Shown here piece by piece: positions 1,714-32,000 of a stretch of DNA of 32,000 nucleotides; position 1 is the first letter of the stretch, and every line of letters starts with the position of its first letter. The position numbers and the translations under genes are program-made. The stretch lies in assembly GCA_027460535.1 (NCBI GenBank), contig JAPZAR010000027.1, positions 30,001-62,000 of the forward strand, given 5' to 3'. This DNA is from Candidatus Methanoperedens sp. (GTDB lineage: Archaea > Halobacteriota > Methanosarcinia > Methanosarcinales > Methanoperedenaceae). Below the pieces are notes generated by a model, which saw only the letters and a program-made list of their open reading frames with translations, did not search any database and was not told the origin of the DNA.

Positions 1714-2735
1714 TGGATTACGATGTCATAATCATAGGTGCGGGGCCGGCCGGGTCAGTTACGGCAACTGCCGTTGCAAAGGCTGGTTATCGCGTACTTG
1801 TGCTTGAAAAAAACCAAAAATGCATGTCCCCCTGTGCGGGGTATATCAGCAACACCATTAATCTTGAGTTGCCTGATCCTTCTGTTATCCAGTCAAAAAT
1901 CACAAAAATGCGCACCTATTCTCCGGATCTCTCTTTTCACGATTTCGATCTGAATGGATTTGTGGTGGACAGACCATCCTTTGACAGGTCACTGGTTGTG
2001 CGGGCGGCAGGTGAAGGGGCCGATATCAAATGGGGTTCGCCGCTGACAGTCCTGTCTTGTGGTGTTGTTAAATTTAGTAAAGGAGAAGCAAAAGGAAGAA
2101 TAATCGTCGGTGCAGATGGTGTTTTTTCAAAAACTGCGGCACTTCTTGGACTGCACAGGCAAAAAGTTGCAGTATGTGCGCAGTACCACTTAAAGGGGAC
2201 AAAACCAATCCCCAATACTGCCGAGATTTTTTTTAACGCTGATTATGCTCCGGGAGGATACGCATGGGTCTACCCCACCGGGGAAGATTCTGCAAAAGTC
2301 GGTGTCGGCACGACCAGTGGCAATCCGCGTAAATACCTGGATGCCTTTGTCAAAGCATCTATCAGATTTGGCGGGAAGAATACGGAGTACATCACAGGCG
2401 CCTTGCCGATAAGCGCACTTCGCGAAAAACTCTGTTTTGGAAATATTCTTCTTGTGGGAGACAGCGCTGGCATGTGCGACCCTGTCACGGGTGCTGGCAT
2501 CAATAATGCGATGATAGCAGGCGAGATTGCGGGAAGAACGATAATATCCGCACTTGAAAACGAGGACCTGACTTTGCTTGATCAGTACGAAGCGAAAATT
2601 AGAAGGCTGATGGGGAAGCCTCTTTCAAGAGCGCTTGGAAAAAGGAAAAAGCTAAGTGACTGTAATAATGAGATGTTACAGAAGCATCTGCCGGAGTTGT
2701 GGGTGACCTTCCGGCAGTACTGGGAGAATTTATAG
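1713..2735 (+). CDS. FAD-dependent oxidoreductase, geranylgeranyl reductase family
   Basis: N-terminal DYDVIIIGAGPAGS...VLVLEK Rossmann FAD motif and an internal LLVGDSAGMCDPVTGAGINNAM motif typical of GGR-family enzymes. I prefer the ATG at 1713, which overlaps the lplA stop as TGATG, over the track start at 1698. Confidence 0.8.
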   Translation: MDYDVIIIGAGPAGSVTATAVAKAGYRVLVLEKNQKCMSPCAGYISNTINLELPDPSVIQSKITKMRTYSPDLSFHDFDLNGFVVDRPSFDRSLVVRAAGEGADIKWGSPLTVLSCGVVKFSKGEAKGRIIVGADGVFSKTAALLGLHRQKVAVCAQYHLKGTKPIPNTAEIFFNADYAPGGYAWVYPTGEDSAKVGVGTTSGNPRKYLDAFVKASIRFGGKNTEYITGALPISALREKLCFGNILLVGDSAGMCDPVTGAGINNAMIAGEIAGRTIISALENEDLTLLDQYEAKIRRLMGKPLSRALGKRKKLSDCNNEMLQKHLPELWVTFRQYWENL

Positions 2736-3237
2736 GCAAATTTCTTCTGGGAGCATAAGATGGGAGATTTTAACTAAATATATTGAAACTCAGGATGTGC
2801 ACCATGCAAAAAAACGCTATGTACAGGCCTCCCTTAAGTCCGGGGTTAGAGTAAATTGTAGTTACGTTTATACCAAATTTTTATTCCGTTTTTTGATTTC
2901 AATGCCGGCTCTATAGAACCGTTCACATCAAATAGTTATATGAAAATAAGAAATAATAGAGATTGATGCGTCTTATATAGGCCTCGTACATCGTACGGGG
3001 TTTGGGGATGACTGCTACTATGGGTTTTCGTGCATCCATAAGAATATCTTGAACCAGAAATCAATCATCGTAATCTATATATAATTCGGATTTCTTAACT
3101 TTGATATCTTTAAATTACAAAGTAATTAAAAACTCCGTTTGTGAGATCTATTATGGCAATTTCACCTGAAAATGTTGTGCGACTGCATTCAATAATTCGG
3201 GCATATATGTGCTGATCGACTATCGGGAGACAGAGTC

Positions 3238-4050
3238 ATGAAAATAATAGCTATAATGGGGAGCCCCAAGGGAAAGGGTTCTGGCCATAAGATCGTGAAA
3301 ATGATCGAAGACAGGATGATAGCGATGGGCAACGTGGAATTCGAATACCTCTTCCTTAAGGATGCGAACCTCAAGCTATGCATCGGCTGCTATAATTGCA
3401 TGGCAAAGGGTGAGGACAAATGCCCGCTCAAGGATGATCGCGCCGCGATAGAGCAAAAATTGCTGGCGGCGGACGGCTTCATTCTTTCATCGCCCGTGTA
3501 CATGGGCAGCGTCAGCGGGCTCATGAAAAATTTCATCGACCGGTTCGCCTACTTGAGCCATCGGCCTCGATTCCACCGTCAGAAAATGTTGACAGTGGTG
3601 AACACGTCAATCACTGGCAAGAAGGGGGCGCTATCGACCCTTAAGATCGCACTGGGATACGATCGAGGCGCCCGGATCGTCCATGAGCTTGCGATAGCGA
3701 CACCCCCGTGGCCGCAAACAGAACGCGCGGTCGCCGAGAAGGAACGGGCCATCGATGTTGCAGCCAAAAAGTTCTACCTGACCTGTCTGGACACATCTCT
3801 ACCATTGCCGACGTTTAATAGCTATATGGACTTTCTCATGATGCAAAAGTTCAGCCTTGAATGCCGGCAATATCTACCAGCGGACTATATGTTTTATAAT
3901 GGTAAGGTCTACTATTTTGATACGAAGGTAAATCCGATCAAGGCGGCTGCGGCAAAGGCCATCGTTGAAATCACTGTGTATATGATGAAGGACATGGGCC
4001 CGGGTAATGTCTCATGGCCTGTGACTAAGAAGGAAGAAAAATTCCATTAA
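3238..4050 (+). CDS. Flavodoxin-fold NAD(P)H-dependent FMN reductase, iron-sulfur flavoprotein (Isf)-like
   Basis: MKIIAIMGSPKGKGSG N-terminus and SSPVYMGSVSGLMKNFIDR flavodoxin-like motifs. A compact cysteine cluster CIGCYNCMAKGEDKC (CxxCxxCx7C) resembles the Isf 4Fe-4S motif. A GGGAGA RBS lies upstream. Confidence 0.7.
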   Translation: MKIIAIMGSPKGKGSGHKIVKMIEDRMIAMGNVEFEYLFLKDANLKLCIGCYNCMAKGEDKCPLKDDRAAIEQKLLAADGFILSSPVYMGSVSGLMKNFIDRFAYLSHRPRFHRQKMLTVVNTSITGKKGALSTLKIALGYDRGARIVHELAIATPPWPQTERAVAEKERAIDVAAKKFYLTCLDTSLPLPTFNSYMDFLMMQKFSLECRQYLPADYMFYNGKVYYFDTKVNPIKAAAAKAIVEITVYMMKDMGPGNVSWPVTKKEEKFH

Positions 4051-4278
4051 ACCAAAAGATTTGGGGCGCCTCGAAATTTTATGCCTGATTTATCATTCGC
4101 TCCACAACTTCATCATAAATATTTCAAAATTGTCAGGCATAATCCTAAGGCAATTCAACTTTGCTTTCTCCACAGTCGATTATATGATAAAACATAATAC
4201 AAAGTTTTATTAACCAATAATATGAATTAATTAATTAAGGGATGAGGTTCGCTTGGAACCCATATAATAGTGGTGTAA

Positions 4279-4869
4279 ATGAATATTGGGGGAGATCAGA
4301 AACAAAAATCATTGTATTTTTACCTGATAATTTTAGTAATAATTATTATAATAAACTCGCTCTTGGCTCGTTTTGCCGTATTGACATGGCAGATTGCCCC
4401 TGGGATCTCTGGATTATATTTTGCAGTTGCTTTTATGATCGCCTTTACGCTATGGTTCGGGATTTGGGGTGCAATAGCAGCATATATTGGATGTTTTATA
4501 GGCGCAGGGATGACTGCGGGTCTGCCACCCGGCTTCAATGTCTATTGGTCATTAGCGGATCTCTGGCAGGTTTTGATACCATTGATAGCTTTCAAGACAT
4601 TAGGTGCTGATGCGGGTCTTAGAACGAAAAGGGATTTTTTAGTATTCCTGATCTTTGGCCTTGTGTTAAATAATCTTGTGGGGGCTGGTTGGGGTGCAGG
4701 TACTCTCGCCGTTGGTGGGATTATTTCATGGAATAATACCCCGGATGAATTCATCGGTTGGCTTATAGGCAATCTAATAGTAACGATTGCAGTCACTCCA
4801 TTGCTGCTCAGATACATTACGCCTCTCATTAAAAAATCGGGAGTATATGTTAGAAATTATTGGATTTAA
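4279..4869 (+). CDS. Polytopic integral membrane protein of unknown function, about 5-6 TM helices
   Basis: 196 aa and strongly hydrophobic with Gly/Ala-rich helices (WFGIWGAIAAYIGCFIGAGM, LNNLVGAGWGAGTLAVGG). I recognise no family. The overlapping ORFs 4242..4610 (+) and 4320..4538 (-) are alternate-frame artefacts. Confidence 0.5.
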   Translation: MNIGGDQKQKSLYFYLIILVIIIIINSLLARFAVLTWQIAPGISGLYFAVAFMIAFTLWFGIWGAIAAYIGCFIGAGMTAGLPPGFNVYWSLADLWQVLIPLIAFKTLGADAGLRTKRDFLVFLIFGLVLNNLVGAGWGAGTLAVGGIISWNNTPDEFIGWLIGNLIVTIAVTPLLLRYITPLIKKSGVYVRNYWI

Positions 4870-4889
4870 ACAAAAGGAGGTGATGAGAA

Positions 4890-5144
4890 ATGGTATTCAT
4901 ATGGGATCCGATCACTGCAGTAAATTTGGTGCTCAGCGTCATAGTACTGGTCTTAGGCTATTGGGGCTATAAAAAGAGCAACGATAAGGTGCCTCTTTAT
5001 GTTGGTATAGCCTTCGGGCTCTTTGGCGTCTCGCATATTGCAACACTTCTCGACTTTAAACAAAGTTTAGTGTTGATAATAATCAGAACGCTTGCCTATC
5101 TGATAGTTATATACGCCGTCTACACAGTAGCGTTTAAACGATAA
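4890..5144 (+). CDS. Small membrane protein, 3 predicted TM helices, unknown function
   Basis: 84 aa. A GGAGGTGA RBS precedes the start. It lies 20 nt downstream of the previous membrane-protein gene, so co-transcription is likely. Confidence 0.45.
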   Translation: MVFIWDPITAVNLVLSVIVLVLGYWGYKKSNDKVPLYVGIAFGLFGVSHIATLLDFKQSLVLIIIRTLAYLIVIYAVYTVAFKR

Positions 5145-5178
5145 ACAAACTCTGGCAAATATCAAAGAGAAGTTAATT

Positions 5179-5613
5179 ATGGATGTCTACATTGAAGCAG
5201 CTATTGAAGAGGCAAAAAAGGGATTAAATGAGGGGGGGATTCCAATCGGTTCTATCCTCGTGAAGGATGGGAAGATTGCAGGGAGAGGACATAACAGGCG
5301 TGTTCAGGATAATGATCCGATTATGCATGCAGAAATTGATTGCCTCCGTAATGCCGGAAGAATTGGCAGGTACAACGGGACTATTCTTTATTCCACATTG
5401 ATGCCCTGTTATCTTTGCGCCGGAGCGATTGTCCAGTTTGGGATCAAGAAAGTTATTGTGGGAGAATCTGAGACCTTCGCAGGCGCCAGGGAATTTATGG
5501 AATCGCATGGGGTTCTTGTCATCGATTTGAACAATGATGAATGCAAGCAATTGATGAGCGGGTTCATACGGAACCATCCTCTGCTGTGGAATGAAGATAT
5601 CGGAAAACTTTGA
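5179..5613 (+). CDS. Cytosine deaminase, CMP/dCMP-deaminase zinc-binding fold (yeast Fcy1 type)
   Basis: HAEIDCL and PCYLCAGAI zinc ligand motifs. The length (144 aa) and the C-terminal ...HPLLWNEDIGKL closely resemble the Fcy1 tail (..WFEDIGE). Confidence 0.8.
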   Translation: MDVYIEAAIEEAKKGLNEGGIPIGSILVKDGKIAGRGHNRRVQDNDPIMHAEIDCLRNAGRIGRYNGTILYSTLMPCYLCAGAIVQFGIKKVIVGESETFAGAREFMESHGVLVIDLNNDECKQLMSGFIRNHPLLWNEDIGKL

Positions 5614-28542: not shown

Positions 28543-28577
28543 TCAGAATATTCTGATTTATCAGAAAAGTTTAAATA
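28543..28577 (+). promoter_or_regulatory. Candidate operator (14-bp perfect palindrome plus a third half-site) directly upstream of a TATA-like box for the AbrB-type gene
   Basis: TCAGAATATTCTGA at 28543-28556 is a perfect palindrome. It overlaps CTGATTTATCAG at 28553-28564. This gives three TCAGA/TCTGA half-sites at 9-nt spacing. TTTAAATA lies at 28570-28577, about 30 nt before the ATG at 28607. Confidence 0.35.
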
Positions 28578-28606
28578 TCCTGAAATCCAATCATTGATCG
28601 ACAAAT

Positions 28607-28876
28607 ATGGCCAAGAAAACCGAAAAAGGCTCCTGCTGCGAAGGGGCAGTAATGGGCTGCTGTAAAGTAGAAGCGCTTGTAAGCATAGATGACCGGGGAC
28701 AGATGGTGCTTCCCAAGGAGATAAGGGATAAGGCAAATATCCATGCGGGAGACAAGCTGGCGCTTGTAAGCTGGGAAAAGGATGGAAAAGTTTGTTGTAT
28801 TTCCTTGATCAAATCAGAGGGGCTTGCTGAAATGGTAAAAAATATGCTTGGGCCGCTAATGAAAGAAATTCTATAA
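28607..28876 (+). CDS. AbrB/SpoVT-family DNA-binding protein with three vicinal cysteine pairs
   Basis: 89 aa. The SpoVT-AbrB swapped-hairpin core is VSIDDRGQMVLPKEIRDKANIHAGDKLALVS. CC pairs occur in GSCCEG, GCCKVE and KVCCIS. It lies 15 nt upstream of arsM. Confidence 0.75.
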   Translation: MAKKTEKGSCCEGAVMGCCKVEALVSIDDRGQMVLPKEIRDKANIHAGDKLALVSWEKDGKVCCISLIKSEGLAEMVKNMLGPLMKEIL

Positions 28877-28891
28877 AAAGAGGGAATCAAA

Positions 28892-29725
28892 ATGAAAGAA
28901 GAAGAAATAAAGAAAGTAGTAAGGGAAGGATATGCCAAAATAGCCAGGAAAGAAAGCTCATGCTGCACTCCTGTAACTGCCTGTTGCGGAAGTAAGAACG
29001 AAGAAATTGCAGTGGGTATAAGCAAGAGGATAGGATATGCGGATGAAGAACTCGGTTCAGTTCCTGAAGGTGCAAACTTGGGTCTTGGATGCGGGAATCC
29101 TGTGGCTCTTGCATCGCTGAAAAAAGGTGAAACGGTGCTTGATCTTGGTTCTGGCGCTGGTTTTGACTGCTTCCTCGCTGCCCAAAAGGTGGGAGTCGGG
29201 GGAAAAGTCATTGGTGTGGATATGACCCCCGAGATGATCCAGAAAGCCAGGGAAAATGCGAGGAAAGGCAATTATTCGAATGTAGAATTCAGGCTCGGGG
29301 AAATCGAAAACCTGCCTGCTCAAGATGATTCGGTCGATGTCATCATCTCAAATTGCGTGATCAATCTCGCACCTGACAAGGAAAGGGTTTTCAAAGAAGC
29401 TATCAGGGTCTTGAGGTCTGGAGGAAGATTGATGGTCTCGGATCTTGTTCTGTTAAAAGAGCTGCCTGATGGACTGAAAAATTCCATTGAGGCTTATATC
29501 GGCTGCCTTTCAGGAGCAATAATGAAAGCCGAATACCTCCAGGCGATAAAGAATGCAGGATTCCGGGATGTCAGAGTGATCGACGAAACGCATTATCCTA
29601 TCGAACTAATGGCCAACGATCCTACGGCAAATGCTATTATTGAAAATTTTGACATTTCGCAGGAAGAGATACACGAGGTTGCCGGGTCTGTTGTCAGTAT
29701 TAAGGTCCAGGGGATGAAAAAATAA
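28892..29725 (+). CDS. arsM: Arsenite S-adenosylmethionine methyltransferase
   Basis: REGYAKIA...[12 protein letters not shown]-terminal Cys region, [16 protein letters not shown] motif, [15 protein letters not shown] and YIGCLSGAI. The last two carry the conserved As(III)-binding cysteines of ArsM. Confidence 0.9.
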
Positions 29726-29760: not shown

Positions 29761-30432
29761 TCAATCGATTTTCATCCCCGATAAAAAATTAAAAGTATTA
29801 GCAGCGAAGAAACTGCCTTTTTCTTCTCCTGATGACATATCTCTCTTCAGGCGGCTGAGGTCATCCATAGTATCCACGTCATACCATTTTTCGATCTGCG
29901 ATATCAAGAGGCCCATGGCACGCGCTTTCTTCACTGTATGCGAAGTCACCTCTGATGTACTCCAGGGGATTCCCTTGAAAAGTTCAGGTATGCTCCTTTT
30001 CATGCCTGCCAGGAAGTACCCTCCATCCTCGCAAGGCCCAATGACAATATCAACTTCATCCAATCGTCGCAGCGCCTCCCGTATATAATCCGGGGGCAGG
30101 TTTGGAGTATCGCTATCCAGCATCACAACCTTCTCAAAGCCTCGATCAAACAGGATATTCGATATGTTTGCAAGTCTTTCACCAAGATCAGCACCCACCT
30201 GGCTGATGAGAGTAAACGCAGGAGGTATGATGCTTCGAAAAAATTTCTCTTCGGCGACAGGTGTATAGGCCAAAAAGGGTTGCGCTTCCTTTATAGTTTT
30301 AACCTGCTCAATCTTATCCAGCAGGAAATTATGATAGAGGCGAGCTGCTGCTTCCGGTTTCAGCGGAGGGGTCAGCCTGGTCTTGACTTCATTCGGTAAA
30401 GGTGCCTTGGCCATAATTACAATCGCGTCCAT
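29761..30432 (-). CDS. DUF2064-family transferase (TIGR04282-like; a family annotated as arsenosugar-biosynthesis / rSAM-selenodomain-associated glycosyltransferase)
   Basis: AIVIMAKAPLPNEVKTRLTPPL..EAAARLYHNFLLD N-terminus, VVMLDSDTPNLP and C-terminal WYDVDTMDDL match my memory of the DUF2064 signature. Subfamily membership was not verified. Confidence 0.7.
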   Translation of the reverse strand: MDAIVIMAKAPLPNEVKTRLTPPLKPEAAARLYHNFLLDKIEQVKTIKEAQPFLAYTPVAEEKFFRSIIPPAFTLISQVGADLGERLANISNILFDRGFEKVVMLDSDTPNLPPDYIREALRRLDEVDIVIGPCEDGGYFLAGMKRSIPELFKGIPWSTSEVTSHTVKKARAMGLLISQIEKWYDVDTMDDLSRLKRDMSSGEEKGSFFAANTFNFLSGMKID

Positions 30433-30436
30433 AGGT

Positions 30437-31246
30437 TTACGCCTTTTTACCTATCAGCCTGCCCCATCCCACTTTTCCCTCGTCTGCAGCCCTGACCCAT
30501 TCATGAAGACCCTGATCAGCCACCTGGAATATCTTTTCTCCATACTGCTCAATTATCAAATTTTTCAATTCGTTGCGAAGCTTATTCTGGTATATGTGAC
30601 AATGACAGACAAAATCTTTGCTTATGTCCTCTATTTCTACAATCGCAAAACCCTCTTCCATCAATAATTGTTCATATCCCTCCAGCGTTTCCATGTATGG
30701 GAATGCCATGAAATTATTGAGGTTCTCCCACTCCATATCAGTCATATTTCCTGTCTGTATCCAATCCGTAAAAGCGATAGTTCCTCCCGGTTTCAGAACC
30801 CTGTGGGCCTCGCTTATCAGCTTTTTCTTATCTGTAATATAGCACCAGGCATCCTGCCCCCAAACCACATCGAAAGTGCCTGCATGAAAAGGCATGTCCA
30901 GGGCATTCCCCGGCCTGAAAGTGACAAGATGGGAGAGACCTTCACTTTTCGTTCGCTCGGTAGCTTCGTTCACCATCTTTATTGTGGCGTCAAGCCCCTT
31001 CACCCTGCATCCATACTTCCGTGCCAGGTGCCTCGCTGGCCCGCCCAGGGCGCTGCACACGTCCAGTACCATCATGTTCCTGGTTATCCTCGCTTTCTCG
31101 GCCAGAATCTCTGTCTCACGCTCGCCCCCCACGTGAATTTCTTCCCCCATCAGCGCCTCCCATAATACACCCACCGGGCCTTCATATATTCCATTAACGT
31201 CTGCTATGGTGAAATCCAGTCTTTTTCCTTTTACAATTTTATCCAT
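30437..31246 (-). CDS. Class I SAM-dependent methyltransferase, glycine/sarcosine/dimethylglycine- or phosphoethanolamine-N-methyltransferase-like
   Basis: VLDVCSALGGPARHLARKYGCRV SAM motif I, FDVVWGQDAWCYI (compare FDVVWSQD..LH in betaine-pathway N-methyltransferases) and LKPGGTIAFTDW. The N-terminal WEALMGEEIHVGG resembles the WG.e.iH.G motif of that group. Confidence 0.7.
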   Translation of the reverse strand: MDKIVKGKRLDFTIADVNGIYEGPVGVLWEALMGEEIHVGGERETEILAEKARITRNMMVLDVCSALGGPARHLARKYGCRVKGLDATIKMVNEATERTKSEGLSHLVTFRPGNALDMPFHAGTFDVVWGQDAWCYITDKKKLISEAHRVLKPGGTIAFTDWIQTGNMTDMEWENLNNFMAFPYMETLEGYEQLLMEEGFAIVEIEDISKDFVCHCHIYQNKLRNELKNLIIEQYGEKIFQVADQGLHEWVRAADEGKVGWGRLIGKKA

Positions 31247-32000
31247 TTTTCATTTTTCCGGCATTTGAATAATTATCAGGGTTCATCCAGCATTTTGGAT
31301 CAGGTGCGAGCATGTCCCCTGTTTCATAATATGCCTGCGCCCTGCATCCCCAGCACACCGAATTATTTTCACATGTCCCGCAGTATCCCTGCATATTGCC
31401 CGGATTCCGGATGTGAGTTAGAAGGAGATTATCTCTCTGCTGCTCAATTATATTTTCCAGAGAAGTCTCATGGATATTCCCAAACCCTTTCCTTATGACA
31501 GAACATGGTGTAACGTCCCCGTCAATGGTAACACATACAATCCCGCCGCAATAGAACTTATTGGCATCCATGGTGCTCATTGAAAGACTTGAATTAGAGT
31601 AGTTGACCTCATCCCTGAACTCGCATGCTTCCCTGATATTCCGGATGCTGGGGCTCCATTCGGGATGTTCCAGGGCAAGACCTGCCATGCACATCTGGGT
31701 CAGGCAGGTTCTCATACCTTTTTCTTCGAAGAAGAATCTGGTCGTCCTCCTGACATCCTCTCCGGCAACAAGGTTCGTGAATGTGATGCAGTTGATCATA
31801 TTCTCGGGTCTCTTGCCAAGGGATTGGATATTATCAATGCCCTGTAATATCGCTTTTATCTTCTTTTCCGGATCCCCTGTGTGGAGCCTGCCATATATTC
31901 CTTCATCAAGACTATCAAGATGCACTGATATGAACCCCCCTTCTGACATCTCGACTGCTTTTCTTGCCACATCTCTATTCTCCAGTGGAATTCCGCTTGT
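31239..32000 (-). CDS. Radical SAM enzyme with a C-terminal SPASM domain; C-terminal part only, gene continues past the right edge
   Basis: SPASM/twitch cysteines are present: FYCGGIVCVTIDGDVTPCSV and YCGTCENNSVCWGCRAQAYYETGD...DPKC (CxxCx5CxxC). The track starts at the GTG at 31970, but my translation of 31971-32000 (TSGIPLENRD) has no stop. The radical-SAM core and CxxxCxxC motif must therefore lie beyond the window. The stop overlaps the downstream methyltransferase start by 8 nt. Confidence 0.8.
   Translation of the reverse strand, partial: TSGIPLENRDVARKAVEMSEGGFISVHLDSLDEGIYGRLHTGDPEKKIKAILQGIDNIQSLGKRPENMINCITFTNLVAGEDVRRTTRFFFEEKGMRTCLTQMCMAGLALEHPEWSPSIRNIREACEFRDEVNYSNSSLSMSTMDANKFYCGGIVCVTIDGDVTPCSVIRKGFGNIHETSLENIIEQQRDNLLLTHIRNPGNMQGYCGTCENNSVCWGCRAQAYYETGDMLAPDPKCWMNPDNYSNAGKMKNG

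Follow-up and report, generated by a model that had tools for sequence, protein, structure and literature searches.

The closest described relatives of the locus reported here are the ArsR/SmtB repressors, ArsD, and DNA-binding proteins of the AbrB/SpoVT fold. Members of the ArsR/SmtB family are As(III)-responsive, winged-helix repressors whose operators contain a dyad of the 12-2-12 type. ArsD combines the roles of arsenic metallochaperone and weak repressor, and it is a thioredoxin-like protein that has the ArsA ATPase as its partner. Among the AbrB-fold proteins AbrB, SpoVT, and MraZ, the last binds runs of short direct repeats at fixed spacing, and to our knowledge none of the three has conserved cysteine pairs or ties to metal(loid) genes.

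A fourth relative has been encountered in mercury-methylating microorganisms. Zhang et al. (2023; PMC10349881) described a 'prlF/abrB/mazE' gene that immediately precedes hgcA on 14 contigs and in 8 confirmed methylators (6 archaeal), and suggested that it may regulate hgcAB in Archaea, in a toxin-antitoxin framing that does not mention the cysteines of the protein. According to a report cited in PMC10349881 (10.1101/2022.10.17.512643), hgcAB of P. mercurii ND132 is under the control of an arsenic-responsive ArsR-like regulator. In the open literature, no report was found of a linkage of HgcC with arsM or acr3, of an operator, or of an experiment on this family; PMC10349881 was the only pertinent paper, and two other papers that were retrieved, PMC9213503 (a 'mazei' match) and PMC2701414 (on ArsR-ACR3), are not about the HgcC family.

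This paper describes a cysteine-rich AbrB/SpoVT-fold protein encoded directly upstream of arsM in Candidatus Methanoperedens sp., together with the promoters and genomic neighborhoods of its homologues. An earlier, sequence-only reading of the locus had proposed a possible new class of As(III) sensor. The family turned out to be catalogued already (NCBIfam HgcC; PMC10349881) and is thus known by name, and comparative analysis makes it a strong candidate for a metalloid-responsive repressor built on the AbrB fold.

Materials and Methods

The window, i.e., the complete stretch of DNA that was analysed, comprises 32,000 nt of contig JAPZAR010000027.1 (GCA_027460535.1) of Candidatus Methanoperedens sp., the genome of which is 2.9 Mb in size and 99.84% complete. 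Positions without a locus or contig handle refer to the window. Genomic context was collected in three independent samples. Sample a consisted of 80 loci on one-genome-per-species contigs; sample b consisted of 301 genomes of the phylum of the window, in which HgcC exceeded its cut-off at 73 places distributed over 64 genomes; and sample c consisted of 80 metagenome loci and was seeded with an acr3-type protein.

Results

The hgcC-family gene extends from 28607 to 28876 on the forward strand (stop codon 28874-28876) and encodes an 89-aa protein with three CC pairs, located at residues 10-11 (SCCEG), 18-19 (GCCKVE), and 63-64 (KVCCIS). NCBIfam model NF040962, 'HgcAB-associated protein HgcC', scored 127.2 bits against a cut-off of 70, with residues 18-87 covering profile positions 1-70 of 70, and as judged by this alignment the window protein is a full-length member of the family. 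A profile search of the whole genome placed NF040962 over its cut-off at this single place, and among the control genomes Methanosarcina acetivorans gave no match to the model. The AbrB relationship was recognized by TIGR01439, the AbrB 'looped-hinge helix' domain (39.7 bits, cut-off 28.3), and by PF04014 (30.4 bits, cut-off 24.7), which was the only Pfam family detected at an E-value of 0.01; neither HTH_5 (PF01022) nor the ArsD family matched at that threshold, and the ArsD family was also absent among the NCBIfam matches. A search of a word-indexed database of 5.8 billion proteins returned 3145 proteins, and the best 120 of these are mostly approximately 70% identical to the window protein, stem from Archaea and many bacterial phyla, and carry names that include 'HgcAB-associated protein', 'antitoxin PrlF', and 'AbrB family'.

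Structural comparison yielded the same classification. A PDB profile search with HgcC retrieved the DNA-binding N-domains of SpoVT/AbrB proteins (2ro5 at an E-value of 2e-4, and also 5itj and 2l66). The AF2 monomer model (mean pLDDT 74) consists of a disordered tail (residues 1-16), a confidently predicted core, and a C-terminal helix (residues 70-88), and strands 1 and 2 were not formed in the monomer, as is expected for a swapped-hairpin fold. When this model was submitted to Foldseek, the best matches were SpoVT, AbrB, Sso7c4, C68, and MazE, with probabilities of 0.97-1.0 and weak E-values (0.02-0.1) for the top rows 2w1t, 1yfb, and 5itm. Alignment-based prediction of a homodimer from two copies reached a score of 0.39 against a mark of 0.42, which argues neither for nor against a dimer. 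The presence of an AbrB/SpoVT swapped-hairpin DNA-binding domain is well supported by comparison, and the window protein is predicted to bind DNA. These results agree with the sequence-only reading, which had recognized the 89-aa reading frame, its three CC pairs, and its position 15 nt before arsM, all of which were re-read in the sequence, as well as the SpoVT-AbrB core, on which PF04014, TIGR01439, the PDB profiles, and Foldseek concur. C63 and C64 are on the last strand (strand 4) of the predicted AbrB core (approximately residues 20 to 69), and C10, C11, C18, and C19 are in the N-terminal tail or just before strand 1.

Whether the cysteines are missing in homologues had been raised as a check on the proposed sensor function, and this is not the case: among 81 HgcC sequences C19 (100%) and C64 (99%) are near-invariant, and C18 (94%), C63 (84%), and C10/C11 (83-84%) are conserved in most of the sequences. 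HgcC proteins of the acr3-linked type (79-80 aa, approximately 40% identical to the window protein, NF040962 scores of 95-106 bits) have no N-terminal tail, retain the CC pair of strand 4, and contain an extra cysteine in the loop between strands 3 and 4 (GCDENG). The N-terminal CC pair of HgcC is dispensable, which counts against the sensor model: the tail cysteines are absent in 4 of the 81 proteins and the acr3-linked subgroup lacks the tail.

Upstream of hgcC, a predicted operator array of four pentamers in 9-bp register was found at positions 28543-28583, consisting of TCAGA (28543-28547), TCTGA (28552-28556), TCAGA (28561-28565), and a degenerate CCTGA (28579-28583). The empty slot of this register is filled by a TATA box read from the sequence, TTTAAATA (28570-28577, forward strand), which conforms to the established archaeal consensus and lies approximately 30 nt before the ATG of hgcC, implying that the leader is very short. 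The sequence-only reading had reported a perfect 14-bp palindrome with a third half-site by the TATA box. Both elements are present in the sequence, the palindrome (TCAGAATATTCTGA, 28543-28556) being formed by the first two pentamers, and the fourth unit just past the TATA box was absent from that reading; the interpretation of the palindrome as a classical inverted-repeat operator was replaced by that of a phased array, as the strict 9-bp TCWGA register fits the sequence better. The arrangement TCWGA-N4-TCWGA-N4-TCWGA occurs once in the window, against none in 100 shuffles, and once in the entire 2.9-Mb genome.

The same motif recurs throughout the family. The hexamers TCAGAA or ATCAGA were encountered in 72-73 of 79 hgcC upstream regions, as compared to 6-7% of 1454 control windows, and an exact 9-bp TCWGA pair was present in 47 of these 79 regions and in none of 1452 controls. 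The spacings of TCWGA upstream of hgcC were 9 bp (56 pairs), 18 bp (45), 27 bp (27), and 36 bp (4), and any other spacing occurred at most once. In all 18 archaeal-type hgcC promoters, one unit has its start exactly 9 bp ahead of the TATA start, and in 16 of the 18 another has its start 9 bp behind it. In 26 of 52 bacterial hgcC promoters the first arrayed site is located 28-31 bp past the start of the -35 element (TTGACA), which is approximately the -10 position, and in 13 of the 52 the array begins inside the spacer. The acr3-linked promoters contain a looser TC(N)GAAAA motif on both sides of the TATA box.

Since TCWGA is its own reverse complement, each unit would suit one two-fold symmetric AbrB dimer, and such dimers might oligomerise via the C-terminal helix. 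The motif stays with the cassette in Archaea as well as in Bacteria, and in each domain it is adapted to the core promoter used there, which points to a DNA-binding protein encoded by the cassette, putatively HgcC itself, and the overlap of the array with the core promoter points to control by repression. A host factor could in principle bind conserved repeats of this kind, and is unlikely to do so here since the repeats accompany the cassette across Bacteria and Archaea. A regulon search in the genome of the window yielded 23 two-unit matches against a rough chance estimate of 13 (approximately twofold), and the six matches that were inspected lie in or beside unrelated genes; no second triple array was detected in this genome, nor a two-unit match on its acr3 contig.

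The arsM gene (28892-29725, forward strand) starts 15 nt past the hgcC stop codon and encodes a 277-aa protein that was assigned to NF008823, arsenite methyltransferase, with 355 bits against a cut-off of 263. It is the sole As(III) SAM-methyltransferase gene in the genome. Its ribosome-binding site GAGGG (28880-28884, forward strand), read from the sequence, sits within the 15-nt gap, which suggests that hgcC and arsM are co-transcribed. The N-terminal tail of ArsM contains a CC-x5-CC motif (C24, C25, C31, C32), and further cysteines are found in GCG (C67), SNC (C155), and GC (C205); the catalytic residues are presumably those that correspond to the catalytic cysteines of CmArsM. No ArsR gene adjoins arsM in the window. 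The upstream neighbor of hgcC is a divergently oriented gene for a beta-CASP nuclease, and this synteny is kept in Ca. Methanoperedens: four upstream genes, hgcC, and arsM occur in the same order in two loci of Ca. Methanoperedens nitroreducens, with amino-acid identities of 67-79%, which argues that the hgcC-arsM cassette is old at its present chromosomal site. Converging on arsM from the other side, the minus strand of positions 29761-31970 carries a tight string of genes for a DUF2064/CofC-like transferase, a class I methyltransferase, and a SPASM-domain radical-SAM-type protein. The genome also contains an acr3 gene elsewhere (C6:60443; locus L095 = G000:C6:58943-62938), which has neither hgcC nor an ArsR-sized ORF directly upstream, and is flanked by a 335-aa ORF upstream and a 98-aa ORF with a CxxC motif downstream.

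In this genome the best match to the HgcA model scored 60 bits against a cut-off of 275, and no HgcB match reached its cut-off. As judged from a genome that is 99.84% complete and lacks both genes, the HgcC family cannot depend on hgcAB. A relative from the same genus (L101 = G228:C3:82000-89500) carries, at 2471-5587 on the minus strand, the string hgcC-arsM-nitroreductase-like gene-hgcA-hgcB behind the same operator, in which the nitroreductase/BluB-like gene (L101:3859-4434) lies between arsM and hgcA. The presence of hgcAB in this genome and its absence from the genome of the window imply that hgcAB was gained or lost within the genus.

The sequence-only reading had suggested a search for systematic linkage of cysteine-pair AbrB proteins to arsM or ars genes; such linkage was found, and it also includes hgcAB and acr3. 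Downstream of hgcC, sample a contained arsM in 62 loci, arsM followed by hgcA-hgcB in 3, hgcA-hgcB in 9, and a contig end in 6, so that arsM and/or hgcAB were present downstream in all 74 informative loci. The gap between hgcC and arsM is usually 7-60 nt, and in two loci a gene for a nitroreductase/BluB-like flavoprotein is inserted between them (L018:8500-9135 and L076:5106-5711, with the identity checked in L018). At the 73 places of sample b, the gene directly downstream encodes ArsM (39), HgcA (18), or the ACR3 arsenite efflux transporter (14), with two contig ends, and hgcC thus precedes arsM, hgcA, or acr3 at 71 of 71 informative places. The 14 acr3-linked genes are all from one family of small genomes without an HgcA or ArsM match, and the assignment of their downstream neighbor to ACR3 is based on 452 bits against a cut-off of 283. 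Composite operons were also detected, with the order hgcC-arsM-acr3 in G082 and G143, and hgcC-hgcA-acr3 in G072 and G204, where the gap is wide enough for a putative hgcB. In sample c, arsM (63) and acr3 (13) follow hgcC in 76 of 77 informative loci, next to three contig ends and a single orphan. This orphan (L108:899-1800) encodes an acr3-type HgcC, followed by approximately 660 nt without an ORF of at least 60 aa and then by a convergent ORF, and the empty stretch may represent a decayed acr3.

The arsM- and hgcA-linked HgcC proteins interleave on a quick tree, which was built from few columns and has many unresolved forks, and one identical HgcC protein was found in both the arsM and the hgcA layout. 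Moreover, eight sampled arsM loci without HgcC were inspected, and an ArsR HTH_5 domain is encoded directly upstream of arsM in two of these and is fused to ArsM in one. On the basis of these three loci, HgcC occupies the slot of ArsR. The fusion is a 357-aa ORF (L187:1920-2993, plus strand) in which HTH_5 (residues 23-69) precedes the methyltransferase domain. A second ORF (L191:1024-2241, minus strand) is probably also an ArsR-ArsM fusion; it has a similar N-terminal VCVCDLE, and HTH_5 did not match at an E-value of 1e-5.

Discussion

The conservation of the promoter motif across Bacteria and Archaea argues for an operon-specific DNA-binding regulator, and we consider it highly probable that HgcC is such a regulator and controls its own transcription. 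The complete model, in which HgcC is an As(III)-released repressor of hgcC-arsM, is a reading that we favor with some reserve, as the direction of control, the nature of the ligand, and the release upon its binding are inferred. According to this model, the AbrB/SpoVT-fold factor would repress its own two-gene operon, with HgcC oligomers occupying the 9-bp-phased TCWGA units that flank the TATA box (28543-28583) and thereby blocking access of TBP and TFB. Conserved thiolates would bind a thiophilic metalloid, for which As(III) is the most likely candidate and MAs(III), Sb(III), and Hg(II) are further possibilities. The residues concerned would be C18/C19 immediately ahead of strand 1, the strand-4 pair C63/C64, and, in the flexible tail, C10/C11. 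Metalloid-bound HgcC would then leave the DNA, allowing expression of arsM.

This arrangement resembles that of the ArsR/SmtB repressors in that hgcC heads an ars or hgc operon and is probably autoregulated, its product contains a cysteine-thiolate motif, and a metalloid may likewise bring about derepression. The two families differ in their folds, which are unrelated, and in their operators, since that of HgcC consists of 5-bp units every 9 bp rather than a dyad. HgcC shares its DNA-binding fold with AbrB, SpoVT, and MraZ, and its array resembles the evenly spaced direct repeats bound by MraZ, whereas a short C-terminal helix takes the place of the C-domains of AbrB and SpoVT. With the NF040962 family, which corresponds to the gene upstream of hgcA in PMC10349881, the window protein shares its cysteines and its promoter motif, yet its partner is arsM instead of hgcAB; across the samples arsM was encountered more often than hgcAB, and acr3 constitutes a third partner.

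Other functions have to be weighed against this. HgcC might act as an ArsD-like metallochaperone, whose cysteine pairs would bind As(III) or Hg(II) for delivery to ArsM, HgcA/B, or Acr3, with DNA binding being secondary or absent. ArsD likewise has three vicinal Cys-Cys pairs, and thiophilic substrates are handled by all partner proteins of HgcC. Moreover, a comparison of ArsM and HgcA N-termini (L015-L094) revealed that the SCCxP...GCC tail of HgcC is similar to the N-termini of its ArsM partners, 47 of 64 of which contain CC-x(2-9)-CC and 16 more a single CC, and that several HgcA partners have similar SCC- or CC-rich tails (e.g., L082, L072, and L080). In the window, residues 23-33 of ArsM (28958-28990) form an SSCC-x5-CCGS tail that is very like that of HgcC. 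Such likeness would fit a sensor that mimics the enzyme as well as it would fit a chaperone. A dual role is conceivable, as in ArsD, but HgcC has the DNA-binding AbrB fold rather than a thioredoxin-like one and no ArsD family match, no arsA was seen next to hgcC in the loci examined, and the conserved array overlies the promoter of hgcC itself. A chaperone would furthermore have to dock, as one type of protein, on a soluble methyltransferase, a membrane corrinoid protein, and an antiporter, and we regard this function as unlikely.

The six cysteines would also be compatible with a thiol-redox or metal-cluster sensor that forms disulfides or binds Zn or an Fe-S cluster, and that answers to oxidants or oxygen rather than to a metalloid. 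Vicinal thiols are redox-active, and the named carriers (Methanoperedens, Dehalococcoidia, Thermodesulfobacteriota, and Nitrospirota) are generally regarded as anaerobic. Redox-defence genes would be expected among the neighbors of such a sensor, however, and apart from the single orphan only arsenic and mercury genes were encountered as context in the three independent samples, which makes this explanation quite improbable. Finally, the annotation as a type II antitoxin of the PrlF/MazE/VapB type derives from the name of PF04014 (MazE_antitoxin), from JGI designations of several homologues as 'antitoxin PrlF', and from the discussion of the gene as toxin-antitoxin-associated (PMC10349881). 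This annotation is effectively refuted, and we give it next to no credence: in 74/74, 71/71, and 76/77 informative loci hgcC is directly followed by arsM, hgcA, or acr3 rather than by a toxin gene, so that MazF, YhaV, or PIN does not adjoin, and the upstream neighbor in the window is the divergent nuclease gene.

Returning to a repressor that responds to a metal(loid), As(III) or a close analogue would be the most economical ligand, because ArsM and Acr3 both act on arsenite. In view of the 18 contexts with hgcAB only, the ligand could instead be Hg(II). A broader proposal is that HgcC is the first metal(loid) sensor on the AbrB fold and constitutes one As(III)-responsive repressor, shared by Bacteria and Archaea, that switches on arsM, acr3, and hgcAB via the 9-bp-phased array; we put this forward tentatively, at slightly less than even chances.

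The control of arsM in anaerobes and of hgcAB in methylators is poorly understood, and it bears on the amounts of methylarsenic and methylmercury that arise in paddies, sediments, and wetlands. Provided that HgcC is a sensor of arsenite, it would represent a new structural class among metalloregulators, and would explain the occurrence of arsM without ArsR in these organisms. It would also provide independent support for the link between arsenic and mercury in hgcAB regulation, now extending to Archaea, Chloroflexota, Nitrospirota, and others. Should a single As(III) repressor indeed be involved, hgcAB would join the arsenic stress response in many lineages, which would hint at a native role of HgcAB that has to do with arsenic. 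The compact operator and the 89-aa putative repressor could, moreover, serve as a biosensor part.

In several archaeal genomes of the phylum acr3 directly follows hgcA(B) or lies no more than a few kb away, in the presence or absence of HgcC (G072:C3:36683-39393, G204:C22:209032-211990, G194:C11, G056:C1, and G224:C3), which represents a further physical link of mercury-methylation genes with arsenite efflux.
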